Source: Desulfuromonadaceae bacterium (GTDB lineage: Bacteria > Desulfobacterota > Desulfuromonadia > Desulfuromonadales > Desulfuromonadaceae). From it: a stretch of 64,000 nt of DNA. The notes beneath the pieces were generated by a model that was given only the letters and a program-made list of their open reading frames with translations, ran no database searches and was not told the origin of the DNA. The position numbers were made by a program, and so were the translations under genes. Of this stretch, positions 4,075 to 59,677 are shown one piece after another; position 1 is the first letter of the stretch; each line of letters opens with the position of its first letter. Location: assembly GCA_049975505.1 (NCBI GenBank), contig JBNGCY010000001.1, positions 41,149 through 105,148 of the forward strand, given 5' to 3'.

Positions 4075-5397
4075 TCAATTCAGCTTATCCTCAATACGGA
4101 TAAGCAGACACTCCTCCTTGACAATAGGCAGAGCTTCGATCTTTTCCAGGGCCTGACGCACGTTTTTCTCCCGCGCTTCGTGGGTCATCATAACGATGGG
4201 GAGAATCCCTTCCACATCGCTTTCAAACATCTCATCCGGCTGAATCATGGAATTGATGCTGATGCCGAAATCTCCGAGGATGGTGGAGATTTTGGCCAGA
4301 ACACCGGGAGCGTCTTCGACGATAAAACGCAGGTAGTAACGTCCTACAAGATCGTCCATGGCCTTTACCGGCAGACGCGTAATCGCTGCGGGGGTATACC
4401 CCAGGGATGGAGTGAATTCACGCGCCCCGGATATGATGGAACGTGCAATGCTCATCACATCCCCCATCACCGCACTCGCCGTGGCTTCCATGCCCGCGCC
4501 GCTGCCATGCAGGAGGACAGGACCGACAAAATCGCCATTGAGACGGATGGCATTGAATACCCCCTGCACATCAGCCATGGGATAGTTGTCCGGCACCATG
4601 GTGGGATGAACCCTGGCTTCGATGGAGCCGTTGTCAAGCTTGCCGATGGCCAGGAGTTTTACCTGATAACCCAGCTGACTGGCGAATTCGATATCCAGTG
4701 CAGAGATGCGGGTAATCCCTTCGGTGTAAATCTGATCAAAATCGATCCAGGTTCCAAAGCACATACTTACCAGAATGGAGAGTTTATGCGCAGTATCGAT
4801 CCCCTCTATGTCGAAGGTAGGGTCGGATTCGGCGTAGCCGAATTTCTGCGCATCGGCAAGGACAGAGGCGAAGTCCTCATCACTTTCTGTCATACGGGTG
4901 AGGATGTAGTTGCAGGTACCGTTAAGGATGCCATACACTCCACTGAACTGATTCGCGCACAGATTTTCACGTATGGATGCGAGGATGGGAATCCCTCCGG
5001 CTACTGCGGCTTCAAACATCAGGGTCACCCCGTTCTCATCCGCAGCCCGCAGGAGCTCTTCCCCATGGAGGGCAAGCAGAGCCTTGTTCGCGGTTACCAC
5101 ATGTTTGCCGTTGTTCAACGCCTCCAGCACAAAGGTGCGCGCCGGTTCATATCCGCCGATAAGCTCAATAACCACATCGATATCGGGATCGGTAAGCAGC
5201 CCCTGTGCATCATCACTCAGAACCCCGGGTTCCAGAGCGACACCGCGATCGGTAGTAACATCCCGATCCACGACGCGCGCCAGTTGAACGGGTGTGCCCA
5301 GGCGTTGCTCCATTATCGCTGCGTTGCTCTGAATAACCTTTATTACTCCGGTACCTATGGTGCCGAAGCCCAGTAAACCAACCTTAATTGCTTTCAT
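4075..5397 (-). CDS. hom: homoserine dehydrogenase
   Basis: 440 aa from ATG 5397, which has a GAGGAG RBS. MKAIKVGLLGFGTIGTGV NAD-binding N-terminus, catalytic domain and C-terminal ACT-like domain. The track ORF extends to 5532 only because it reads through the upstream repeat. Confidence 0.93.
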   Translation of the reverse strand: MKAIKVGLLGFGTIGTGVIKVIQSNAAIMEQRLGTPVQLARVVDRDVTTDRGVALEPGVLSDDAQGLLTDPDIDVVIELIGGYEPARTFVLEALNNGKHVVTANKALLALHGEELLRAADENGVTLMFEAAVAGGIPILASIRENLCANQFSGVYGILNGTCNYILTRMTESDEDFASVLADAQKFGYAESDPTFDIEGIDTAHKLSILVSMCFGTWIDFDQIYTEGITRISALDIEFASQLGYQVKLLAIGKLDNGSIEARVHPTMVPDNYPMADVQGVFNAIRLNGDFVGPVLLHGSGAGMEATASAVMGDVMSIARSIISGAREFTPSLGYTPAAITRLPVKAMDDLVGRYYLRFIVEDAPGVLAKISTILGDFGISINSMIQPDEMFESDVEGILPIVMMTHEAREKNVRQALEKIEALPIVKEECLLIRIEDKLN

Positions 5398-5420
5398 ACA
5401 CTCCTCTATGAAAAATCCGC

Positions 5421-5565
5421 GTAACTGCTCAGTTAGGCCTTGCGGCACCCATTCCAAGGGACACTTTGCGCCGTCCATGGCCGTTCGACTGTCGCCGTCC
5501 GTGGCGACAGACGCCCTTTCCATGGGTACCACAAGCCCTTATCGGTAGCGGTGGTGAATAGTTAC
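5421..5565 (-). mobile_element. MITE-like repeat, copy 1 (145-bp short form; canonical GTAACTATTCACC...GAACAGTTAC strand is the minus strand)
   Basis: Terminal inverted repeats and a conserved hairpin core. Perfect 8-bp direct repeat AAATCCGC at 5413-5420 and 5566-5573. No ORF of its own. Confidence 0.85.
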
Positions 5566-19990: not shown

Positions 19991-20623
19991 TTATTCAGGG
20001 CGCTTGCCCCAGACCAGAAACACCGGATATCCTGTCTCCCCCTGTAGACGCTGTTTAACAATGGTATGGGCGAGAACGGAATCTGTATGCCCAAGACCAA
20101 GACGCTCAAGGGTCTGTTGCAACGCTTCACTCCGGATCCCGGACTGGATAACTCCTTCAGGTTTGTCGTGAAAAGTTCCGTCATCGTTCTCCAAGTCAGC
20201 GAGAGCGAGGATTCCTCCGGGGCGCAGAGCTGCTATGAGATGTTCCAGGATCGGCTCTATCTGCGGAAGATGATGTAGCACCATACTGCTGTATATCAGG
20301 TCAAATTCACCTCGACCCAGCAGAACCAGATCATCGCCTACAAGTCTGGTACGCACCTCCCGCGCTCCGAGGTCGGCGGCTTTTTTTTCCACCACTTCGA
20401 GCATCTCAACAGCACGATCGACTGCAACCACCTCTTCCAGCGCATCAATCAGATTGAAGGTCACCATCCCGGTGCCACACCCGAACTCCATGGCACGGCA
20501 TCCGGGCGGTATGCCAACATGGGTACGTATCGCATCCGCCACGGCGGCTGCAAGCTTTACCCGCCGCGGTTTTTCATCCCAGGTAGCGGCAACAGCATTG
20601 AAATCTTTGACTCTGGTTTCCAT
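19991..20623 (-). CDS. class I SAM-dependent methyltransferase
   Basis: 210 aa from ATG 20623 (AAGGA RBS). SAM-binding motif AMEFGCGTGMVT. The track ORF reaches 20758 only by reading through the upstream repeat. Confidence 0.8.
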   Translation of the reverse strand: METRVKDFNAVAATWDEKPRRVKLAAAVADAIRTHVGIPPGCRAMEFGCGTGMVTFNLIDALEEVVAVDRAVEMLEVVEKKAADLGAREVRTRLVGDDLVLLGRGEFDLIYSSMVLHHLPQIEPILEHLIAALRPGGILALADLENDDGTFHDKPEGVIQSGIRSEALQQTLERLGLGHTDSVLAHTIVKQRLQGETGYPVFLVWGKRPE

Positions 20624-20646
20624 GTTCCATGTCCTTTTTTTTGAAA

Positions 20647-20791
20647 ATAACAGTTCAGTAAGGGCTTGTGCCACCCATTCCAAGGGACACTTTGCGCCGT
20701 CCATGGCCGTTCGACTGTCGCCGTCCGTGGCGACAGACGCCCTTTCCATGGGTACCACAAGCCCTCACCGGTAGCGGTAGTGAAGAGTTAC
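20647..20791 (-). mobile_element. MITE-like repeat, copy 2 (145-bp short form)
   Basis: Same core as copy 1. Perfect 8-bp direct repeat TTTTGAAA at 20639-20646 and 20792-20799. Confidence 0.85.
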
Positions 20792-29803: not shown

Positions 29804-32080
29804 ATGGCAAATAAACGTGAAGCTCTTGAATACCACAGCACCGGACGCAAGGGGAAAATTGAGGTCATTGCCACTAAACCCTGCCTAACCAGCCGCGATC
29901 TGTCTCTGGCATACAGCCCCGGTGTAGCTGAACCATGTCTTGAGATCGAAAAAAATCCCAAAGATGCCTATGAGTATACTGCCAAAGGTAATCTGGTAGC
30001 AGTGGTTTCCAACGGCACCGCCGTACTTGGTTTGGGAGATATCGGCGCGCTTGCGAGTAAGCCGGTCATGGAGGGAAAAGGTGTTTTATTCAAGCGTTTC
30101 GCCGATGTTGACGTATATGACATTGAGCTTGACACCAAAGATCCGGAAGAGGTTGTGCGCACGGTAAAACTGCTGGAGCCAACGTTCGGTGGCATCAATC
30201 TCGAAGATTTCAAAGCTCCGGAATGTTTCTATATTGAAGAACAGCTCAAAGAGCAGATGAACATCCCGGTGTTCCACGATGACCAGCACGGCACTGCAAT
30301 TATTGCCAATGCCGGACTTCTCAACGCCCTGGAAATAATCGGTAAGGATATTGGAAAAATCCGGATCGTAGTAAATGGAGCGGGTGCCGCAGGTATTGCA
30401 TGTGCCAATATGGCCCTTACCCTGGGAGCCAAACAGGAAAATATGATCCTGTGCGACAGTAAGGGGGTTATTTACAAAGGGCGTACCGAAGGGATGAATC
30501 CGTACAAGGAGCGCCTGGCTACAGAATCGAGTGTACGCACCCTGGAAGAAGCGATGGAAGGTGCGGACGTATTTTTCGGGGTTTCCGCCAAGGACGCTGT
30601 AACCCCGGAAATGGTCGCAAGCATGGCAAAAGATCCGGTTATTTTTGCCATGGCAAATCCAGATCCGGAGATCCTGCCAAGTGTGGCGTTGAAGGTACGT
30701 GATGATGTGATCATAGGCACCGGACGCAGCGATTTCCCCAACCAGGTCAACAACGTTCTGTGTTTTCCCTTTCTGTTCCGGGGTGCTCTTGATACCCATG
30801 CCACCGCCATCAATGATGAGATGAAGATGGCCGCGGTTAAAGCACTTGCCAATCTGGCTAAGGAGGATGTCCCCGATTCGGTTATTAAAGCCTACGGCAA
30901 CACCAAGTTCTCCTTCGGGCGCGACTATCTTATCCCCAAGCCGTTTGACCCGCGTGTACTCCTGCATGTGGCACCGGCGGTGGCGCAGGCAGCAATTGAC
31001 AGCGGAGTGGCTCAGACCCATATTGCTGATATGGTTAAATATACCGAATCCCTGGAAGCTCTGCAGGGGCGTTCCAAGGAGATCATGCGCACCCTTATCA
31101 ATAAGGCCAAAGCATGTCGTAAGCGCATCGTGTTCCCGGAAGGTGACCACGACAAGATTCTGCGCGCGGCCCAGATCCTCATTGATGAACGTATCGCGAT
31201 CCCCATCCTGCTGGGGCCGGAGCAGGAGATTATCAATAGCATCAAGCGTCTGGGTCTGGATCTGCACGGCGTGCATATTATCGATCCGCACGACAATCCG
31301 AAGACCAAAAAATACGCGGATGAGTTCTTCCGTCTGCGCCAGCGTAAAGGTGTCACCCTGGCCGAAGCGATCCGCACCATGGACAACGAACGCAACTACT
31401 ACGGTGCCATGATGGTGCATATGGGGGATGCGGATGCGATGCTCTCGGGTATCAACCATCACTACCCGGAAACCATTCGCCCCACTCTGGAAATTATCGG
31501 CAAACAGCAGGAGATCATGGGGGTTCACGGTCTGTATATGCTCGCATTCAAAAACCGCGTGGTTTTCTGTGCTGACACCACAGTGTGTATCGATCCGAGC
31601 GCGGAAGAACTTGCGGAAACCGCAATCCTTGCAGCCAACAAGGCACGCCATTTTGATGTGGAGCCGCGCATTGCGATGCTCTCCTTCTCCAACTTCGGCA
31701 GTGCCAATCACCCCTTCACCAGCAAGATCCGCAAAGCGACCCAACTGGTTAAAGAGTGGGCTCCAGAGCTTGTGGTTGAGGGCGAGATGCAGGCCAATGT
31801 CGCTTTTGATGCGGAAATCACCGAGCGCCAGTATCCGTTTTCCGCCATCAAGGGGGACGCCAATGTGCTTATCTTCCCGGATCTGGATGCGGGGAATATC
31901 GCCTATAAATTGTTAAACAAACTCGGAGGTGCCGAAGCGGTGGGACCAATCCTGATGGGGGTCAAAAAACCGGTACACGTACTCCAACGTGGTGACGACG
32001 TAAACGATATCGTCAATCTGGCTGCTGTGGCTGTCGTCGATGCGCAACAGGCGATGGAACAGGAAGTATATAAAAGCTGA
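29804..32080 (+). CDS. maeB: NADP-dependent malic enzyme (malic enzyme + phosphotransacetylase-like domain)
   Basis: 758 aa. The N-terminal malic enzyme has [19 protein letters not shown] and NGAGAAG motifs. The C-terminal PTA-like domain gives a MaeB-type architecture. Confidence 0.93.
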
Positions 32081-32100
32081 ACAATACTCATATTAACACA

Positions 32101-32147
32101 CCACAATAAAAGCCTCCGGATTTCTCCTCCGGAGGCTTTTATTGTGG
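32101..32147 (+). terminator. Rho-independent terminator after maeB (47-nt perfect palindrome)
   Basis: A 20-bp perfect stem (CCACAATAAAAGCCTCCGGA / TCCGGAGGCTTTTATTGTGG) with a 7-nt loop. The GC-rich inner stem is followed by TTTTATT. Confidence 0.8.
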
Positions 32148-32301
32148 TTAAGCACATGCGCATTTCTCGTTATCACGCAGATATACTCCGGAGCTTGATA
32201 CGCTTTCAAAATTTTCACATCCCTGATACAATCCGCCGACCTCAGCACAACCACAACAATTACATTTTACATTAAATAACGCCTGAGCAGGAGAATCCGC
32301 C

Positions 32302-33693
32302 ATGCGCTACAAAAGCACCAGAGGTTCAGTTTCAGATATATCATTTTCCGATGCGGTCATGATGGGTTTGGCCACCGATGGCGGTCTGCTGTTACCGGAA
32401 CATATTCCGAGTGTGTCAGCACACGAACTCAGCTGCCTTCACACCATGGGATATCCCGAGTTGGCGTACCACATCATCCAGCGCTTTGTGGGTGAGGATA
32501 TCCCTGCGCATGACCTCGAACAGATCATCAGACGTTCCTACAGTACATTCACCCATCCGGATATCACCCCGGTTCAGCGCCATGGTGCGGTCCACATCCT
32601 TGAGCTGTTTCACGGCCCCACCCTCGCATTCAAGGATGTGGCACTGCAGTTTCTCGGCAACCTGTTTGAATATCTGCTCCAGAAACGTGCTGCGCACATG
32701 AACATCATCGGTGCGACTTCCGGCGATACCGGGAGCGCGGCGATCTATGGAGTAAAAGGTAAGGAAAACATCAACATCTTTATTCTCCATCCGCATGGAC
32801 GCGTTTCCCCGATTCAGGAACTGCAGATGACCACGGTTACGGATCCGAATGTGTTCAACCTTGCCATTGATGGCAACTTCGATGACGGCCAACGCATAGT
32901 CAAGGAGATTTTTGCAGATCTGGAATTCAAACAGAAGTATGCCCTGGGCGCGGTCAATTCAATAAATTGGGCGCGGGTGCTGGCGCAGATCGTGTACTAC
33001 TTTTACGCCTGGAGCAGAACGGCGTCAGCCCCTGATGCACAAGTGGATTTTGCCGTACCTACCGGAAATTTCGGGGATATTTTTGCCGGATATATGGCCA
33101 GAGAGATGGGCCTGCCCGTCGGCCAGCTTGTTCTTGCCACTAATGAAAACAACATCCTCTCCCGCTTTGTCTCAGAGGGCGACTATTCCATCGATACTGT
33201 AGTGGAGACCCTCTCGCCGTCCATGGATATCCAGGTGGCAAGTAATTTCGAACGCTATCTCTATTATCTGCTCGATGGCAGGAGCAATACGCTGGTAGAG
33301 AAAATGGATGAATTCAAGGCCAGACAATCCATTAGTTTCACTGAAGCGCAACGGCAGCGGGTCCAGGCTGATTTCAGCACCCGCACGGTGGATACTGACG
33401 CCACATTGGAAACTATCCGCAATTTCTATCACGAGACCGGCTACATACTGGATCCCCATACTGCTGTGGGAGTATGTGCCGGAGAACACTTACGCAACGA
33501 AGATATCCCTATGATCTGCCTGGCGACAGCACATCCCGCCAAATTTCCCGCAGCGGTACAGCGCGCCATTAAAATCGAGCCTCCTCGGCCGGAATCGCTG
33601 CGGGATATTGAACAACGCGACAAACGCTGCGAGCACATCAGTGCGGATACCCAGGCGATAAAGGACTACATTGCGGCTCACGCCCTGAGTTGA
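32302..33693 (+). CDS. thrC: threonine synthase (long form)
   Basis: 463 aa. MRYKSTRG start and PTLAFKDVALQ PLP-Lys motif. Confidence 0.93.
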   Translation: MRYKSTRGSVSDISFSDAVMMGLATDGGLLLPEHIPSVSAHELSCLHTMGYPELAYHIIQRFVGEDIPAHDLEQIIRRSYSTFTHPDITPVQRHGAVHILELFHGPTLAFKDVALQFLGNLFEYLLQKRAAHMNIIGATSGDTGSAAIYGVKGKENINIFILHPHGRVSPIQELQMTTVTDPNVFNLAIDGNFDDGQRIVKEIFADLEFKQKYALGAVNSINWARVLAQIVYYFYAWSRTASAPDAQVDFAVPTGNFGDIFAGYMAREMGLPVGQLVLATNENNILSRFVSEGDYSIDTVVETLSPSMDIQVASNFERYLYYLLDGRSNTLVEKMDEFKARQSISFTEAQRQRVQADFSTRTVDTDATLETIRNFYHETGYILDPHTAVGVCAGEHLRNEDIPMICLATAHPAKFPAAVQRAIKIEPPRPESLRDIEQRDKRCEHISADTQAIKDYIAAHALS

Positions 33694-36229: not shown

Positions 36230-36290
36230 GGATGATCCAACTTCTATGCTCAAATCATCTCCATATTTACGATTATCCTGGATGTAATTG

Positions 36291-36343
36291 TCCTCAGGAA
36301 TGGGTGCCACAAGCCCCTATGGGCGATAGTGGTGAATAGTGAC
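36291..36343 (-). mobile_element. truncated remnant of the MITE-like repeat (one arm plus one terminus only)
   Basis: GGAATGGGTGCCACAAGCCCCTATGGGCGATAGTGGTGAATAGTGAC matches the arm plus terminus of the full copies. The other half is absent. Confidence 0.55.
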
Positions 36344-38933: not shown

Positions 38934-39024
38934 ATCTCAACTCCACTCCCTTCAAGAAGGTGCCTGGCACAGCCTGGACTCCTGCCCTGACCGCACTTTA
39001 GGCATGCATAGAACATAAATAAAT

Positions 39025-39181
39025 GTAACTATTCACCACCACTACCGGTGAGGGCTTGTGGTACCCATGGAAAGGGCGTCTGTCGCCACGGACGGCGACA
39101 GTCGAACGGCCATGGACGGCCCCAATCCCAAACAGTCGTGTCCCTTGGAATGGGTGCCACAAGACCGTACTGAACAGTTAC
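39025..39181 (+). mobile_element. MITE-like repeat, copy 4 (157-bp long form; canonical strand is plus)
   Basis: Full TIRs and core. Perfect 8-bp direct repeat AAATAAAT at 39017-39024 and 39182-39189. Carries a 20-nt segment (39120-39139) in place of the 8-nt CGCAAAGT found in the short form. Confidence 0.88.
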
Positions 39182-39207
39182 AAATAAATAAACAAAAAAA
39201 TAAGTAA

Positions 39208-39522
39208 CTACTCAGCCTGTTGCGCGGTGGCAGAGATGGAACTGCGATTGAACTTCATCTTCACCCCTTTATCCACTTCAAGGGTGATGACATCGTCCTG
39301 AACGGTAACAATTTTGCCGTGGATGCCGCCGGCGGTAATCACGTTATCCCCGGCTTTGAGGGATTCAATCAGCTGACGGTGCTGTTTAGCACGTTTCTGC
39401 TGGGGACGGATAAGAAGAAAATAGAAAATGGCGAACATAAGGACCAGCATGATGATCCCTTCATATCCCTGCTGTCCGCCCTGTGCTCCAGTCCCTGACA
39501 TTGCATAAGCGTTTGAAACCAT
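39208..39522 (-). CDS. yajC: preprotein translocase subunit YajC
   Basis: 104 aa. FYFLLIRPQQKRAK motif. Confidence 0.9.
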   Translation of the reverse strand: MVSNAYAMSGTGAQGGQQGYEGIIMLVLMFAIFYFLLIRPQQKRAKQHRQLIESLKAGDNVITAGGIHGKIVTVQDDVITLEVDKGVKMKFNRSSISATAQQAE

Positions 39523-45359: not shown

Positions 45360-45505
45360 GTAAACTATTCACCACCGCTACTTCTATGGGCTTGTGATAC
45401 CCATGAAAAGGGCGTCTGTCGCCACGGACGGCGACAGTCGAACGGCCATGGACGGCGCAAAGTGTCCCTTGGAATGGGTGTCACAAGACCTCGCTGAACA
45501 ATTAT
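45360..45505 (+). mobile_element. MITE-like repeat, copy 5 (146 bp, the most diverged full copy)
   Basis: Same architecture as the other copies. Degraded flanking repeat AAAATACT / AAATTACA (6 of 8 match). Carries a compensatory G-C to A-T change in the long arm. Confidence 0.75.
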
Positions 45506-49795: not shown

Positions 49796-50983
49796 CTACT
49801 TGTTTTTCTGTTGCCGGCTGGACTTGAGCAGATCCCCAAGGGTTCCAAGCCCGGAGGAAGGCGCTGTATCGGTATAGCTTCTGGCGCCGGCGTCACTTTC
49901 CTGCCCGGCAGGAACCAGGGAGATACGGCGTTCTTCCTGATCGATTTTTTCGATACTCACGCGGATATTCTCTCCGGGTTGCAGAACCTCCTGTGGATGG
50001 CCGATGCGTTTACCTTCTCCCAGTTTTGAGATATGAATCAGACCATCCACTCCATCCTCAAGAGTGATAAAGGCGCCAAAGGGAGCCAGACGGCTTACTA
50101 CGCCGGGATATTCCTGCCCCTCCTTGTAGATGGTACCCACCTTCTTCCAGGGATCAGCCTGGGTATCGCGTAAACTGAAGGAGAATTTGTTGTTTTCCCA
50201 GTCCAGTTTCTTAACCGCTACTTCCAGTTCCTGATCAATGCTCAGTACCTGGTTGATGTCCTCTACCCGGCCATGGCTTATTTCGGAAATGGGAAGCAGC
50301 CCTTCAAGCCCGCCAATATCCACAAAAGCACCAAAATCGCGGATATTGGTAACCCGGCCTTTGACAATCATTCCCTCTTTGAGGGTCTTGCGCAGTTCTT
50401 CACGCTGGCGTTCGCGTTCCTCTTCGAGGATAGCGCGATGGGAAACCACAATATTGCGCCCACGTTCACCAAACTGGGTGATTCTGAAACTCACACTCCG
50501 ACCGGGGATGCTTTCAGCTTCACTCTGGCGGAAACCACTTTGAGAAAAGGGGCAGAAAGCGCGGATATTTCCTGCCAGCTTTACGCTGAAGCCTCCCTTG
50601 GTTTCTGCCTCAAAAGTGCCTTCAACCGGGATGCCACTGTGAAAAGCGCTTTCATACTGATCCAGTCCGGAACCCCCAGCTCCTACTTTTGTGGTAAAAC
50701 GCAACTCTCCGCCTTTGCGCGAGACAAAATACACCTGAAGTTTGTCTTCAGGAGCATAGCGGAAATTTCCTTCCTCATCCTGAATCTCAGCACTCGCCAG
50801 AACTCCTTCGCCTTTTTGGCCGACATCGAGAAAGGTCCAGTCCTGCCCTGTCTGGAGAATGGTTGCCTCCACCTGCATGCCAGGATCAAGCTTTGTCCCC
50901 ATGTGGGCAATGCTCTCTTCAAACATGGCGGCAAAATCCTCATCTTCATTCTGTTCCTGGCCGGGGTTAAATTCTTCGTTCAT
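49796..50983 (-). CDS. S1 RNA-binding domain protein (four S1 repeats, RpsA-like but shorter)
   Basis: 395 aa from ATG 50983 (AAGGAA RBS). Repeated S1 folds (e.g. GRVTNIRDFGAFVDIGGLEGLLPISE and GVVSRLAPFGAFITLEDGVDGLIHIS). The track ORF reaches 51160 only by reading through the repeat. Confidence 0.85.
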   Translation of the reverse strand: MNEEFNPGQEQNEDEDFAAMFEESIAHMGTKLDPGMQVEATILQTGQDWTFLDVGQKGEGVLASAEIQDEEGNFRYAPEDKLQVYFVSRKGGELRFTTKVGAGGSGLDQYESAFHSGIPVEGTFEAETKGGFSVKLAGNIRAFCPFSQSGFRQSEAESIPGRSVSFRITQFGERGRNIVVSHRAILEEERERQREELRKTLKEGMIVKGRVTNIRDFGAFVDIGGLEGLLPISEISHGRVEDINQVLSIDQELEVAVKKLDWENNKFSFSLRDTQADPWKKVGTIYKEGQEYPGVVSRLAPFGAFITLEDGVDGLIHISKLGEGKRIGHPQEVLQPGENIRVSIEKIDQEERRISLVPAGQESDAGARSYTDTAPSSGLGTLGDLLKSSRQQKNK

Positions 50984-51026
50984 CAGTGGTTCCTTAAGAT
51001 TGCGGTTCGGGTGAGAAATTCCATTT

Positions 51027-51183
51027 GCAACTGTGGAGTAATGCCTTGTGGCACCCATTCCAAGGGACACGACTGTTTGAGATCGGGGCCGTCCATGGCC
51101 GTTCGACTGTCGCCGTCCGTGGCGACAGTCGCCCTTTCCATGGGTACCACAAGCCCTCACCGGTAGCGATGGTGAATAGTTAC
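51027..51183 (-). mobile_element. MITE-like repeat, copy 6 (157-bp long form)
   Basis: Perfect 8-bp direct repeat TTCCATTT at 51019-51026 and 51184-51191. It has the long-form internal segment, as in copy 4. Confidence 0.85.
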
Positions 51184-55072: not shown

Positions 55073-55217
55073 GTAACTATTCACCACCACTACCGGTGAG
55101 GGCTTGTGGTACCCATGGAAAGGGCGTCTGTCGCCACGGACGGCGACAGTCGAACGGCCATGGATGGCACAAAGTATCCCTTGAAATGGGTGCCACAAGA
55201 CCGTACTGAACAGTTAC
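55073..55217 (+). mobile_element. MITE-like repeat, copy 7 (145-bp short form)
   Basis: Perfect 8-bp direct repeat TAATTTTC at 55065-55072 and 55218-55225. Lies between convergent genes. Confidence 0.88.
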
Positions 55218-59597: not shown

Positions 59598-59677
59598 GTA
59601 ACTGTTAAGTAGGGGTCGTGTAGCGCCCATGCTAATGGGTGGCATAAGGCCCACAGGTTGTGGTGATGAATAGCTAC
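59598..59677 (-). mobile_element. internally deleted, diverged derivative of the MITE-like repeat (80 bp)
   Basis: Retains both termini (GTAACTGTTAAG ... GATGAATAGCTAC) and parts of both arms, joined at CCCAT-GCTA-ATGGG. Flanking repeat ATTAGAAA / ATTAGAAT (7 of 8 match). Confidence 0.55.

Follow-up and report, generated by a model that had tools for sequence, protein, structure and literature searches.

The 64-kb window, by which we mean the whole stretch of DNA analysed here, contains a genuine and recently active MITE family from Desulfuromonadales, apparently undescribed, with ends and target-site duplications of the ISBst12/IS66 type. We judge it probable that these elements are non-autonomous and that an ISBst12-group DDE transposase, from the IS66 family, mobilises them in trans. 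The first-pass annotation had called the repeat MITE-like, and the properties of the element support this designation: it is shorter than 300 bp, non-coding, bounded by terminal inverted repeats and flanked by duplications of a fixed length of 8 bp, it occurs in multiple copies, and at one locus a filled as well as an empty site was found.

Aligning the repeats of the window yielded six full copies, one internally deleted copy of 80 bp and one relic, in agreement with the coordinates and lengths first assigned to the copies. In coordinate order, the full copies measure 145, 145, 157, 146, 157 and 145 bp. The first (5421..5565, minus strand) separates the nusB stop from the hom start, with the two genes on the minus strand, and the second (20647..20791, minus strand) is flanked by genes for an addA-like helicase and a methyltransferase. 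The third (39025..39181, plus strand) occupies the yajC-secD spacer and is strain-specific, and the fourth (45360..45505, plus strand), between hsp20 and umuD, is an older copy which is fixed in all sister strains. The fifth (51027..51183, minus strand) is located upstream of an S1-domain gene and the sixth (55073..55217, plus strand) between two convergent genes. The 80-bp copy, which is diverged, is found at 59598..59677 on the minus strand. A remnant between secF and recJ had been annotated as truncated at 36291-36343; the remnant is indeed present and is conserved in sister strains, but it spans about 59 bp at about 36285..36343 on the minus strand and, because it retains both tips, GTCACTATTC...GGACAATTAC, it is a heavily deleted element and not a one-sided truncation. 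The 145-bp and 157-bp forms are not related by a simple indel; what distinguishes them is the substitution of CCCAATCCCAAACAGTC for GCAAA. Searching the window with the 22-nt arm of the element gave six matches at up to two mismatches, where shuffled sequences are expected to give none, and the 15-nt left tip gave 14 matches at up to three mismatches against 0.9 expected. The copies had been thought to differ by only a handful of substitutions, an estimate that was too low, since pairwise identity among the six full copies is just 85-97% with a mean of 91%. The closest pair is 96.6% identical, and one of its members is the polymorphic copy of the yajC-secD spacer. Examination of the gene context confirmed that all copies are intergenic, at a density of about one per 8 kb, and their orientation relative to the adjacent genes is mixed.

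Five window copies are flanked by perfect 8-bp duplications which, read on the canonical strand, are GCGGATTT, TTTCAAAA, AAATAAAT, AAATGGAA and TAATTTTC. That of the yajC-secD copy, AAATAAAT, occupies 39017-39024 and 39182-39189, and TAATTTTC flanks the copy at 55073; on the plus strand, the duplications of the copies at 5421, 20647 and 51027 read AAATCCGC, TTTTGAAA and TTCCATTT, respectively, GCGGATTT, TTTCAAAA and AAATGGAA being the reverse complements of the plus-strand 8-mers originally listed. Imperfect duplications matching at 6/8 positions at the 45360 copy and at 7/8 positions at the 59598 copy complete a pattern that is exactly as the first-pass annotation described it. Outside the window, perfect duplications were also found at five copies (L011, L014, L023, L026 and L027), bringing the total to ten copies; the duplicated sequences are mutually unrelated, and those of the window are AT-rich. 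Duplications with 7/8 matches occur, besides the 80-bp window copy, at L015, L016, L024, L025 and L035. Four metagenomic copies (L012, L031, L033 and L034) have no duplication, which may reflect inter-copy recombination or chimeric assembly.

Additional copies were expected beyond the window, and we found them in two MAGs and in 24 metagenomic contigs. Scanning 185,579 genomes, one per species, with a 22-mer tip sequence retrieved two MITE copies only, and the MAGs that carry the element are 'Deltaproteobacteria bacterium tcs-42' and one Geobacteraceae MAG. A metagenome scan with a gapped tip-plus-arm pattern retrieved the 24 contigs, all of them with MITE copies and mostly from one sample. 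Compared with the window, tcs-42 shows 88% identity in its copy of the element and about 70% in syntenic housekeeping genes; between lineages with housekeeping genes at about 70% identity, the identity of the element amounts to 88-90%. The SecD protein of the host shows 76-79% identity to Desulfuromonas proteins, and its nearest clusters are metagenomic only, from which we conclude that the host is an uncultured, Desulfuromonas-like member of Desulfuromonadales.

Comparison with sister strains indicated mobility of the element. An insertion that duplicates its target should have orthologous empty sites with a single 8-mer, and the yajC-secD site largely conforms to this expectation. The copy is missing in all of 14 sister-strain contigs, which encode an identical YajC and share 95-99% identity with the window over 6-20 kb, and their spacer has neither the 157-bp element nor a second 8-mer; however, the one empty site that could be aligned and the reconstructed pre-insertion site differ in the length of a short (ATTT)n tract, by a single unit. 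Since the copy is absent from such closely related contigs, we infer that this insertion is recent. A search for empty sites had also been suggested at two other loci, where a different picture emerged: the hsp20-umuD copy, like the secF-recJ relic, is present in all sister strains, and the nusB-hom site is filled in another sample (L038) as well. The family, as we read these comparisons, mixes old, fixed insertions with at least one very recent insertion. In a sister-species MAG (L073, about 80% identical), the element is missing over 11 kb in which the intergenic DNA is unalignable, and exact-protein look-ups for further empty sites returned no match, probably because the starts or the sequences differ.

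The anatomy of the element can be described on the yajC-secD copy. Its left terminal inverted repeat tip, GTAACTATTCAC (39025..39036, plus strand), is 98% conserved among 20 copies, and the right tip, GTAACTGTTCAG (39170..39181, read on the minus strand), is 94% conserved, so that the imperfect terminal inverted repeats noticed at the outset are present, their tips GTAACTATTCA / GTAACTGTTCA having 94-98% conservation across copies. Inside the tips, a left 22-nt arm, CTTGTGGTACCCATGGAAAGGG (39055..39076, plus strand, 98% conserved), pairs with the right 22-nt arm, CCCTTGGAATGGGTGCCACAAG (39142..39163, plus strand), leaving GGA unpaired; this arm pairing, proposed earlier, was reproduced in the folds, and in total the arms leave two GGA motifs unpaired. 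Between the arms lies core hairpin 1, CTGTCGCC-ACGGAC-GGCGACAG (39080..39101, plus strand), which the first-pass annotation had correctly recognised, and also a core hairpin 2, GGCC-ATGGAC-GGCC (39108..39121, plus strand), which had gone unnoticed; both have AYGGAY loops. In fact, every full copy contains CGCC-ACGGAC-GGCG followed by GGCC-ATGGAC-GGC(C/G) within a stem of at least 40 bp. The whole element folds as one long hairpin, with energies of -69.2 kcal/mol as RNA (z = -6.6) and -36.8 kcal/mol as DNA (z = -4.4). Over 20 copies, conservation is 94-98% in the tips, 96-98% in the arms, 98% in the core and 84-87% in the sub-terminal segments, and because the conservation of the AYGGAY module equals that of the tips, the module probably matters for propagation or as RNA. 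Open reading frames within the element are short, up to 54 amino acids, and fall in several frames, and neither promoter-like nor terminator-like sites were detected in the two copies scanned.

The element also appears to change after it has been inserted. In size variants of 100-121 bp, the parts of the core that are missing are bounded precisely by short direct repeats within the element (GCCAYGGACGG, CCATGGA), and this coincidence of the deletion endpoints with the repeats points to slipped-strand deletion. At the orthologous hsp20-umuD site, the copies of the window and of L064 have a 145-type centre and those of L063, L069 and L070 a 157-type centre. Since all five share site-specific substitutions in the arms, the difference in their centres indicates that the centre was swapped between copies by gene conversion.

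To identify the relatives of the tips, we compared them with nine single-ORF insertion sequences (ISs) of the IS66 family, each of which encodes a transposase with PF03050 DDE_Tnp_IS66. These ISBst12-group ISs share the ends GTAACTRYTCAG as inverted repeats of 12-16 bp, and perfect 8-bp duplications flank six of the nine. One of them, located on pHTA426 of Geobacillus kaustophilus (L039 14107-15741), contains one ORF with PF03050 DDE_Tnp_IS66, PF13005 zf-IS66 and DUF6444, has the ends GTAACTATTCAGCCC / GTATCTATTCAGCCC and carries the duplication GACGAGTT on both sides. The eight others, five plasmid-borne and three abundant in metagenomes, come from Bacillus, Acaryochloris, Deinococcus, Oceanisphaera, Chlorohelix and metagenomes. 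Their ends are GTAACTACTCAG, GTTACTGCCCAG, GTAACTGCTCAG, GTAACTATTCAG, GTAACA(A/G)TTCAG, GTAACTGCTCAG, GTTACTGCTCAG and GTAACTATTCAG, with the consensus GT(A/T)AC(T/A)(A/G)(C/T)(T/C)CAG. Perfect 8-bp duplications, mostly AT-rich and including CTTCATTC, TAAAAATC, AATTATTT and ATAAAAAG, were counted at five of these eight, and a near-perfect 7/8 duplication, TCAAATT(G/A), was seen as well. The left tip of the element, GTAACTATTCAC, is 11/12 identical to the IS ends GTAACTATTCAG (L039, L043, L057), the exception being position 12, which is C in the left tip and G in all nine ISs, and the right tip, GTAACTGTTCAG, fits the GTAACTRYTCAG consensus at 12/12 positions; for both tips, the likeness stops after about 12 nt. 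The element therefore resembles the ISBst12 group (ISBst12, ISDge4, the pHTA426 IS, ISKpn15 and ISAs21) in its terminal 12 nt, its 8-bp duplications and its frequently AT-rich targets, and it differs in that the ISs are 1.45-1.65 kb long and encode a transposase, whereas the element of 145-157 bp encodes none. ISDge4, an ISBst12-group member of the IS66 family with the ends GTGACTACTCAGCA / GTAACTGCTCAGCA and an 8-bp direct repeat, is the first of the group for which transposition was experimentally shown, in 2026 (PMC12898284).

Canonical IS66 elements, which have three ORFs (tnpA, tnpB and tnpC), are alike in their GTAA start and their 8-bp duplications. Their ends, however, are GTAAGCGTCC... 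and GTAAGCGTCCGG (PMC12888890), that is, GTAAGCG..., and past GTAA they are unlike the GTAACTATTCAC of the element; of the canonical inverted repeat GTAAGCGnCC, only GTAA is held in common. An IS66-type partner had been guessed from the start, and this guess was right at the level of the family. Since the tips fit the ISBst12 consensus at 11-12/12 positions, with duplications of 8 bp, and share with canonical IS66 only GTAA, we assign the element more narrowly, though provisionally, to the ISBst12 group on the evidence of short tips and duplication length.

Having observed that both the tips and the duplication length match, we infer mobilisation in trans by an ISBst12-type transposase, and this could proceed as follows. 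The tips GTAACTATTCAC and GTAACTGTTCAG would serve as binding and cleavage sites for a DDE transposase from the single-ORF ISBst12 group, which an autonomous IS, not seen in the DNA examined, would provide in trans. This transposase would move the element into AT-rich intergenic DNA by staggered cuts 8 bp apart, the repair of which would generate the 8-bp duplications. Once inserted, copies would undergo internal deletions between short direct repeats (GCCAYGGACGG) and exchange central segments with one another. In addition, the element carries, as an internal module, the two AYGGAY-loop hairpins in a long stem. Because the nine ISBst12 ISs examined have no such double hairpin, we conclude that the module was not inherited from IS ends.

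What goes beyond a routine MITE in this family is the strongly conserved AYGGAY double-hairpin core with its possible kinship to TwoAYGGAY RNAs (Rfam RF01731, clan CL00106, which we take to be the Csr/Rsm clan). The two share a long basal stem carrying two consecutive AYGGAY hairpins, and both are multi-copy and intergenic; thus, the architecture that defines RF01731, two sequential AYGGAY hairpins on one basal stem, is present in the element. When single copies were searched with RF01731, two gave full-length matches of 20.0 and 20.6 bits, which, at E-values of 0.95 and 0.51 for the 200-250 nt searched, are not significant alone and stay far below the gathering score of 43; the whole window had no match at that score either. 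For the reverse comparison, a model built from the MITE alignment, R1, was searched over 250 kb of Agathobacter rectalis DNA, in a replicon of which we found genuine TwoAYGGAY copies (159 bits). With default filters, R1 produced two matches at E of 10 or lower, 18.9 bits (E 0.033) and 15.8 bits (E 0.25), and both fall inside genuine TwoAYGGAY copies, on the correct strand and with hairpins 1-1 and 2-2 aligned. With the filters off, a third copy appeared at 15.8 bits, making three of the four copies, but unrelated hairpins scored alike. The two models thus cross-match weakly in both directions. They disagree on hairpin 1, which R1 aligns to TwoAYGGAY hairpin 1 and the Rfam model to its hairpin 2. 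The hairpin tops GCCATGGACGGC (GCC-AUGGAC-GGC) are identical in the element and in the Agathobacter TwoAYGGAY copies. The Agathobacter copies differ from the element in having copy-specific, covarying, self-complementary outer stems, in lacking the GTAACTRTTCAG / GTAAC tips and in showing no clear 8-bp duplication, and Desulfuromonadales, to which the host of the element belongs, is not among the reported taxa of TwoAYGGAY. We therefore place the element outside RF01731 and advance kinship with TwoAYGGAY as a tentative hypothesis.

These comparisons bear on whether the element could primarily be a structured RNA of the TwoAYGGAY or Csr/Rsm type, a candidate CsrA sponge or cis-regulatory handle for which the transposon-like ends are a mere vehicle. 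We consider this possible but unlikely; it is compatible with the MITE interpretation, and the two differ in what selection preserves. A transcript of the canonical strand would display two AYGGAY loops and two unpaired GGA motifs, which would suit such an RNA, as would the sub-threshold but full-length RF01731 matches and the fact that the only default-filter matches of R1 are in genuine TwoAYGGAY copies. The pattern of variation is likewise suggestive: the core is 98% conserved, five of the six loop substitutions among copies are at Y positions and retain Y, and the two substitutions seen in the hairpin 1 stem each yield G-U on the canonical strand; over the stems as a whole, however, G-U and A-C events number 17 and 10, which is not a significant difference, and RNAalifold gave two compensatory double-change pairs and a covariation term of about zero, there being too little variation. 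That the module is missing from the nine ISBst12 ISs speaks for the RNA as well. Moreover, four of the six full copies are probably transcribed, since they are flanked by co-directional genes. The element would, however, be sense at nusB-hom and addA-methyltransferase and antisense at yajC-secD and hsp20-umuD, where the transcripts would show UCC and not GGA. Further arguments against a primarily RNA-based identity are the low Rfam score (20 against 43 bits), the unrelated hairpins that equal TwoAYGGAY copies when filters are off, the Agathobacter copies without GTAAC tips or clear duplications, and the fact that no csrA was seen in the DNA examined.

A related proposal, which we also rate as rather doubtful, combines both aspects: the element may be a mobile double hairpin of the TwoAYGGAY type, around which ISBst12-type ends were captured or evolved, so that an IS66-family transposase would distribute candidate CsrA-binding hairpins among operons and untranslated regions. 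TwoAYGGAY has been proposed to bind Csr/Rsm proteins, and a September 2026 preprint describes its expansion as 'mobile-element-like', with the link between mobility and regulation left unresolved. If the proposal is true, the copy-number explosions of TwoAYGGAY-like repeats would for the first time have a concrete transposition mechanism, and the family would be an example of a MITE spreading a post-transcriptional regulatory site. If the element is a true relative of TwoAYGGAY, its defined tips, its duplications and a candidate transposase family would make it a tractable case for studying the multiplication of RNA-like repeats and their possible binding to CsrA.

Returning to the MITE mobilised by an ISBst12-type transposase, we also looked for its autonomous partner. 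The first-pass annotation had proposed that an IS, of IS66 type or otherwise, might share its ends, but an autonomous IS with the ends of the element (GTAACTATTCACCACC, GTAACTATTCACC) was not found in our genome, metagenome, plasmid and phage searches. The 22-mer scan of 185,579 species genomes and the metagenome pattern scan with its 24 contigs returned MITE copies and no IS, tblastn of an ISBst12 transposase against the collected Desulfuromonadales DNA gave nothing, blastn brought up no relevant match in plasmids or phages, and viral contigs had no match. Three abundant metagenomic clusters of ISBst12-type transposases were considered as the cognate IS; their tips are related, and none is cognate. 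This outcome, together with the limitation of the tip similarity to about 12 nt, leaves some room for a MITE moved by another DDE family that makes 8-bp duplications (ISL3, IS256, IS6 or IS1595), with GTAAC tips arising by coincidence. Indeed, several IS families make 8-bp duplications. However, ISL3, IS256 and IS6 ends typically start with GG... and not with GTAAC, both tips fit the ISBst12 consensus at 11-12/12 positions and the motif is present in all nine ISs, and we regard such an origin as improbable. Palindromic repeats of the REP/BIME type or similar, which a RAYT (Y1) transposase or recombination would have spread, would also be palindromic, intergenic and dense, but REPs are 20-40 nt long and are not known to make duplications, so the precise 8-bp duplications of unrelated AT-rich DNA, the 145-bp length and the clean presence/absence polymorphism rule this reading out for practical purposes. 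An integron attC site, a CRISPR or other tandem repeat and a protein-coding element were likewise rejected.

Among known MITEs, the Correia elements of Neisseria, Nezha and others resemble the present family in size class, in a density of about one per 8 kb, in insertion into operons and in their internal-deletion variants. The inverted repeats of Correia elements are 26 bp long and their duplication is TA, and Correia- and Nezha-type MITEs have no sequence similarity to our element. A MITE from a related Desulfuromonadales lineage, Chunjie of Geobacter uraniireducens Rf4, is also intergenic and forms a very stable hairpin; it is AT-rich and 178-235 bp long, its inverted repeats measure 21 bp and its duplications 9 bp (PMC3184786). 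By these features, it is set apart from the GC-rich element of 145-157 bp with matching tips of about 12 bp and 8-bp duplications. The claim that the family is undescribed holds within the sources searched: Rfam gave no match at the gathering score for the whole window, the sequence strings of the element had no match in the searchable literature, and its motifs do not occur in the 'multicopy nucleotide sequence' supplements of two Geobacter genome papers. In the literature that we found, no description links a bacterial MITE to the ISBst12 branch of IS66.

The element sits inside operons, for example yajC-secD and nusB-hom. Many metagenomic contigs terminate inside a copy; the site at 55073, for instance, is filled in a 93%-identical contig (L075) which itself ends inside the copy. 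Since contigs end within its copies, we conclude that the repeat breaks the metagenome assembly of this uncultured host group.

The older MITE copy between hsp20 and umuD (window 45360-45505), which is fixed in sister strains, was compared with the orthologous insertions on the sister-strain contigs L063 (4006-4159), L064 (588-729), L069 and L070. We found that the centre of this insertion is of the 145-type (TTTGCG) in some strains and of the 157-type (GACTGTTTGGGATTGGGG) in others, while the arm substitutions specific to the site are common to all strains compared. This combination of mixed centres and constant arms points to gene conversion between dispersed MITE copies. Shortened copies of 100-121 bp also occur (L015:2085-2202, L016:1030-1150, L023:4087-4207 and L021:528-627), and their missing core segments are bounded exactly by the short internal direct repeats GCCAYGGACGG and CCATGGA, a pattern consistent with an origin of these deletions by replication slippage; each deletion removed one or both of the AYGGAY hairpins.

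Between the window lineage and that of the 'Deltaproteobacteria bacterium tcs-42' MAG (LLYT01000001.1, here L011; MITE copy at 835-979), the MITE is 88% identical, whereas syntenic housekeeping genes of the same two lineages (L011:2944-6327 versus window 29819-33275) are only ~70% identical, and this difference suggests either that the MITE or its partner has spread horizontally or that the MITE sequence is under strong constraint. At the strain-specific insertion between yajC and secD, a short tract of (ATTT)n/(TTTA)n (window 39182-39210; spacers of L001-L010) shows one-unit and single-base differences between strains, and this variation blurs exact reconstruction of the empty site.

In the window, the longest ORFs of hom (4075-5532, minus strand), the methyltransferase gene (19991-20758, minus) and the S1-domain gene (49796-51160, minus) enter the adjacent MITE copies, and under longest-ORF gene calling their start codons would fall within the MITE. 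Metagenome contigs of the host lineage repeatedly terminate inside MITE copies (starts of L065 and L066; ends of L075, L038, L013, L022, L028-L030 and L036); assemblies of this lineage are fragmented by the MITE, and counts of the MITE in MAGs are probably too low.

The Xanthomonas sRNA sX7 matched window 55076-55149 in Rfam below threshold (15.3 bits, E 0.76); its 3' hairpin, GGCGCC-ACGGAC-GGCGC, shares its top with MITE hairpin 1. The TwoAYGGAY RNA motif occurs in 4-5 copies in Agathobacter rectalis record NZ_CP143948.1 (L077-L081), with long outer stems that vary in sequence from copy to copy but keep their self-complementarity. This record, labelled 'plasmid unnamed1', looks like chromosomal DNA despite its label, because it contains ribosomal-protein operons, rpoB/rpoC, tuf, fusA and secY.

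In several metagenomes (L045, L047-L050), the right end of an ISBst12-type IS is disrupted, reading AGAACATCTCAGCCTG in place of GTAACTGCTCAGCCTG, and the IS is directly followed by an IS110-family transposase gene; this arrangement looks like a recurrent nested insertion.
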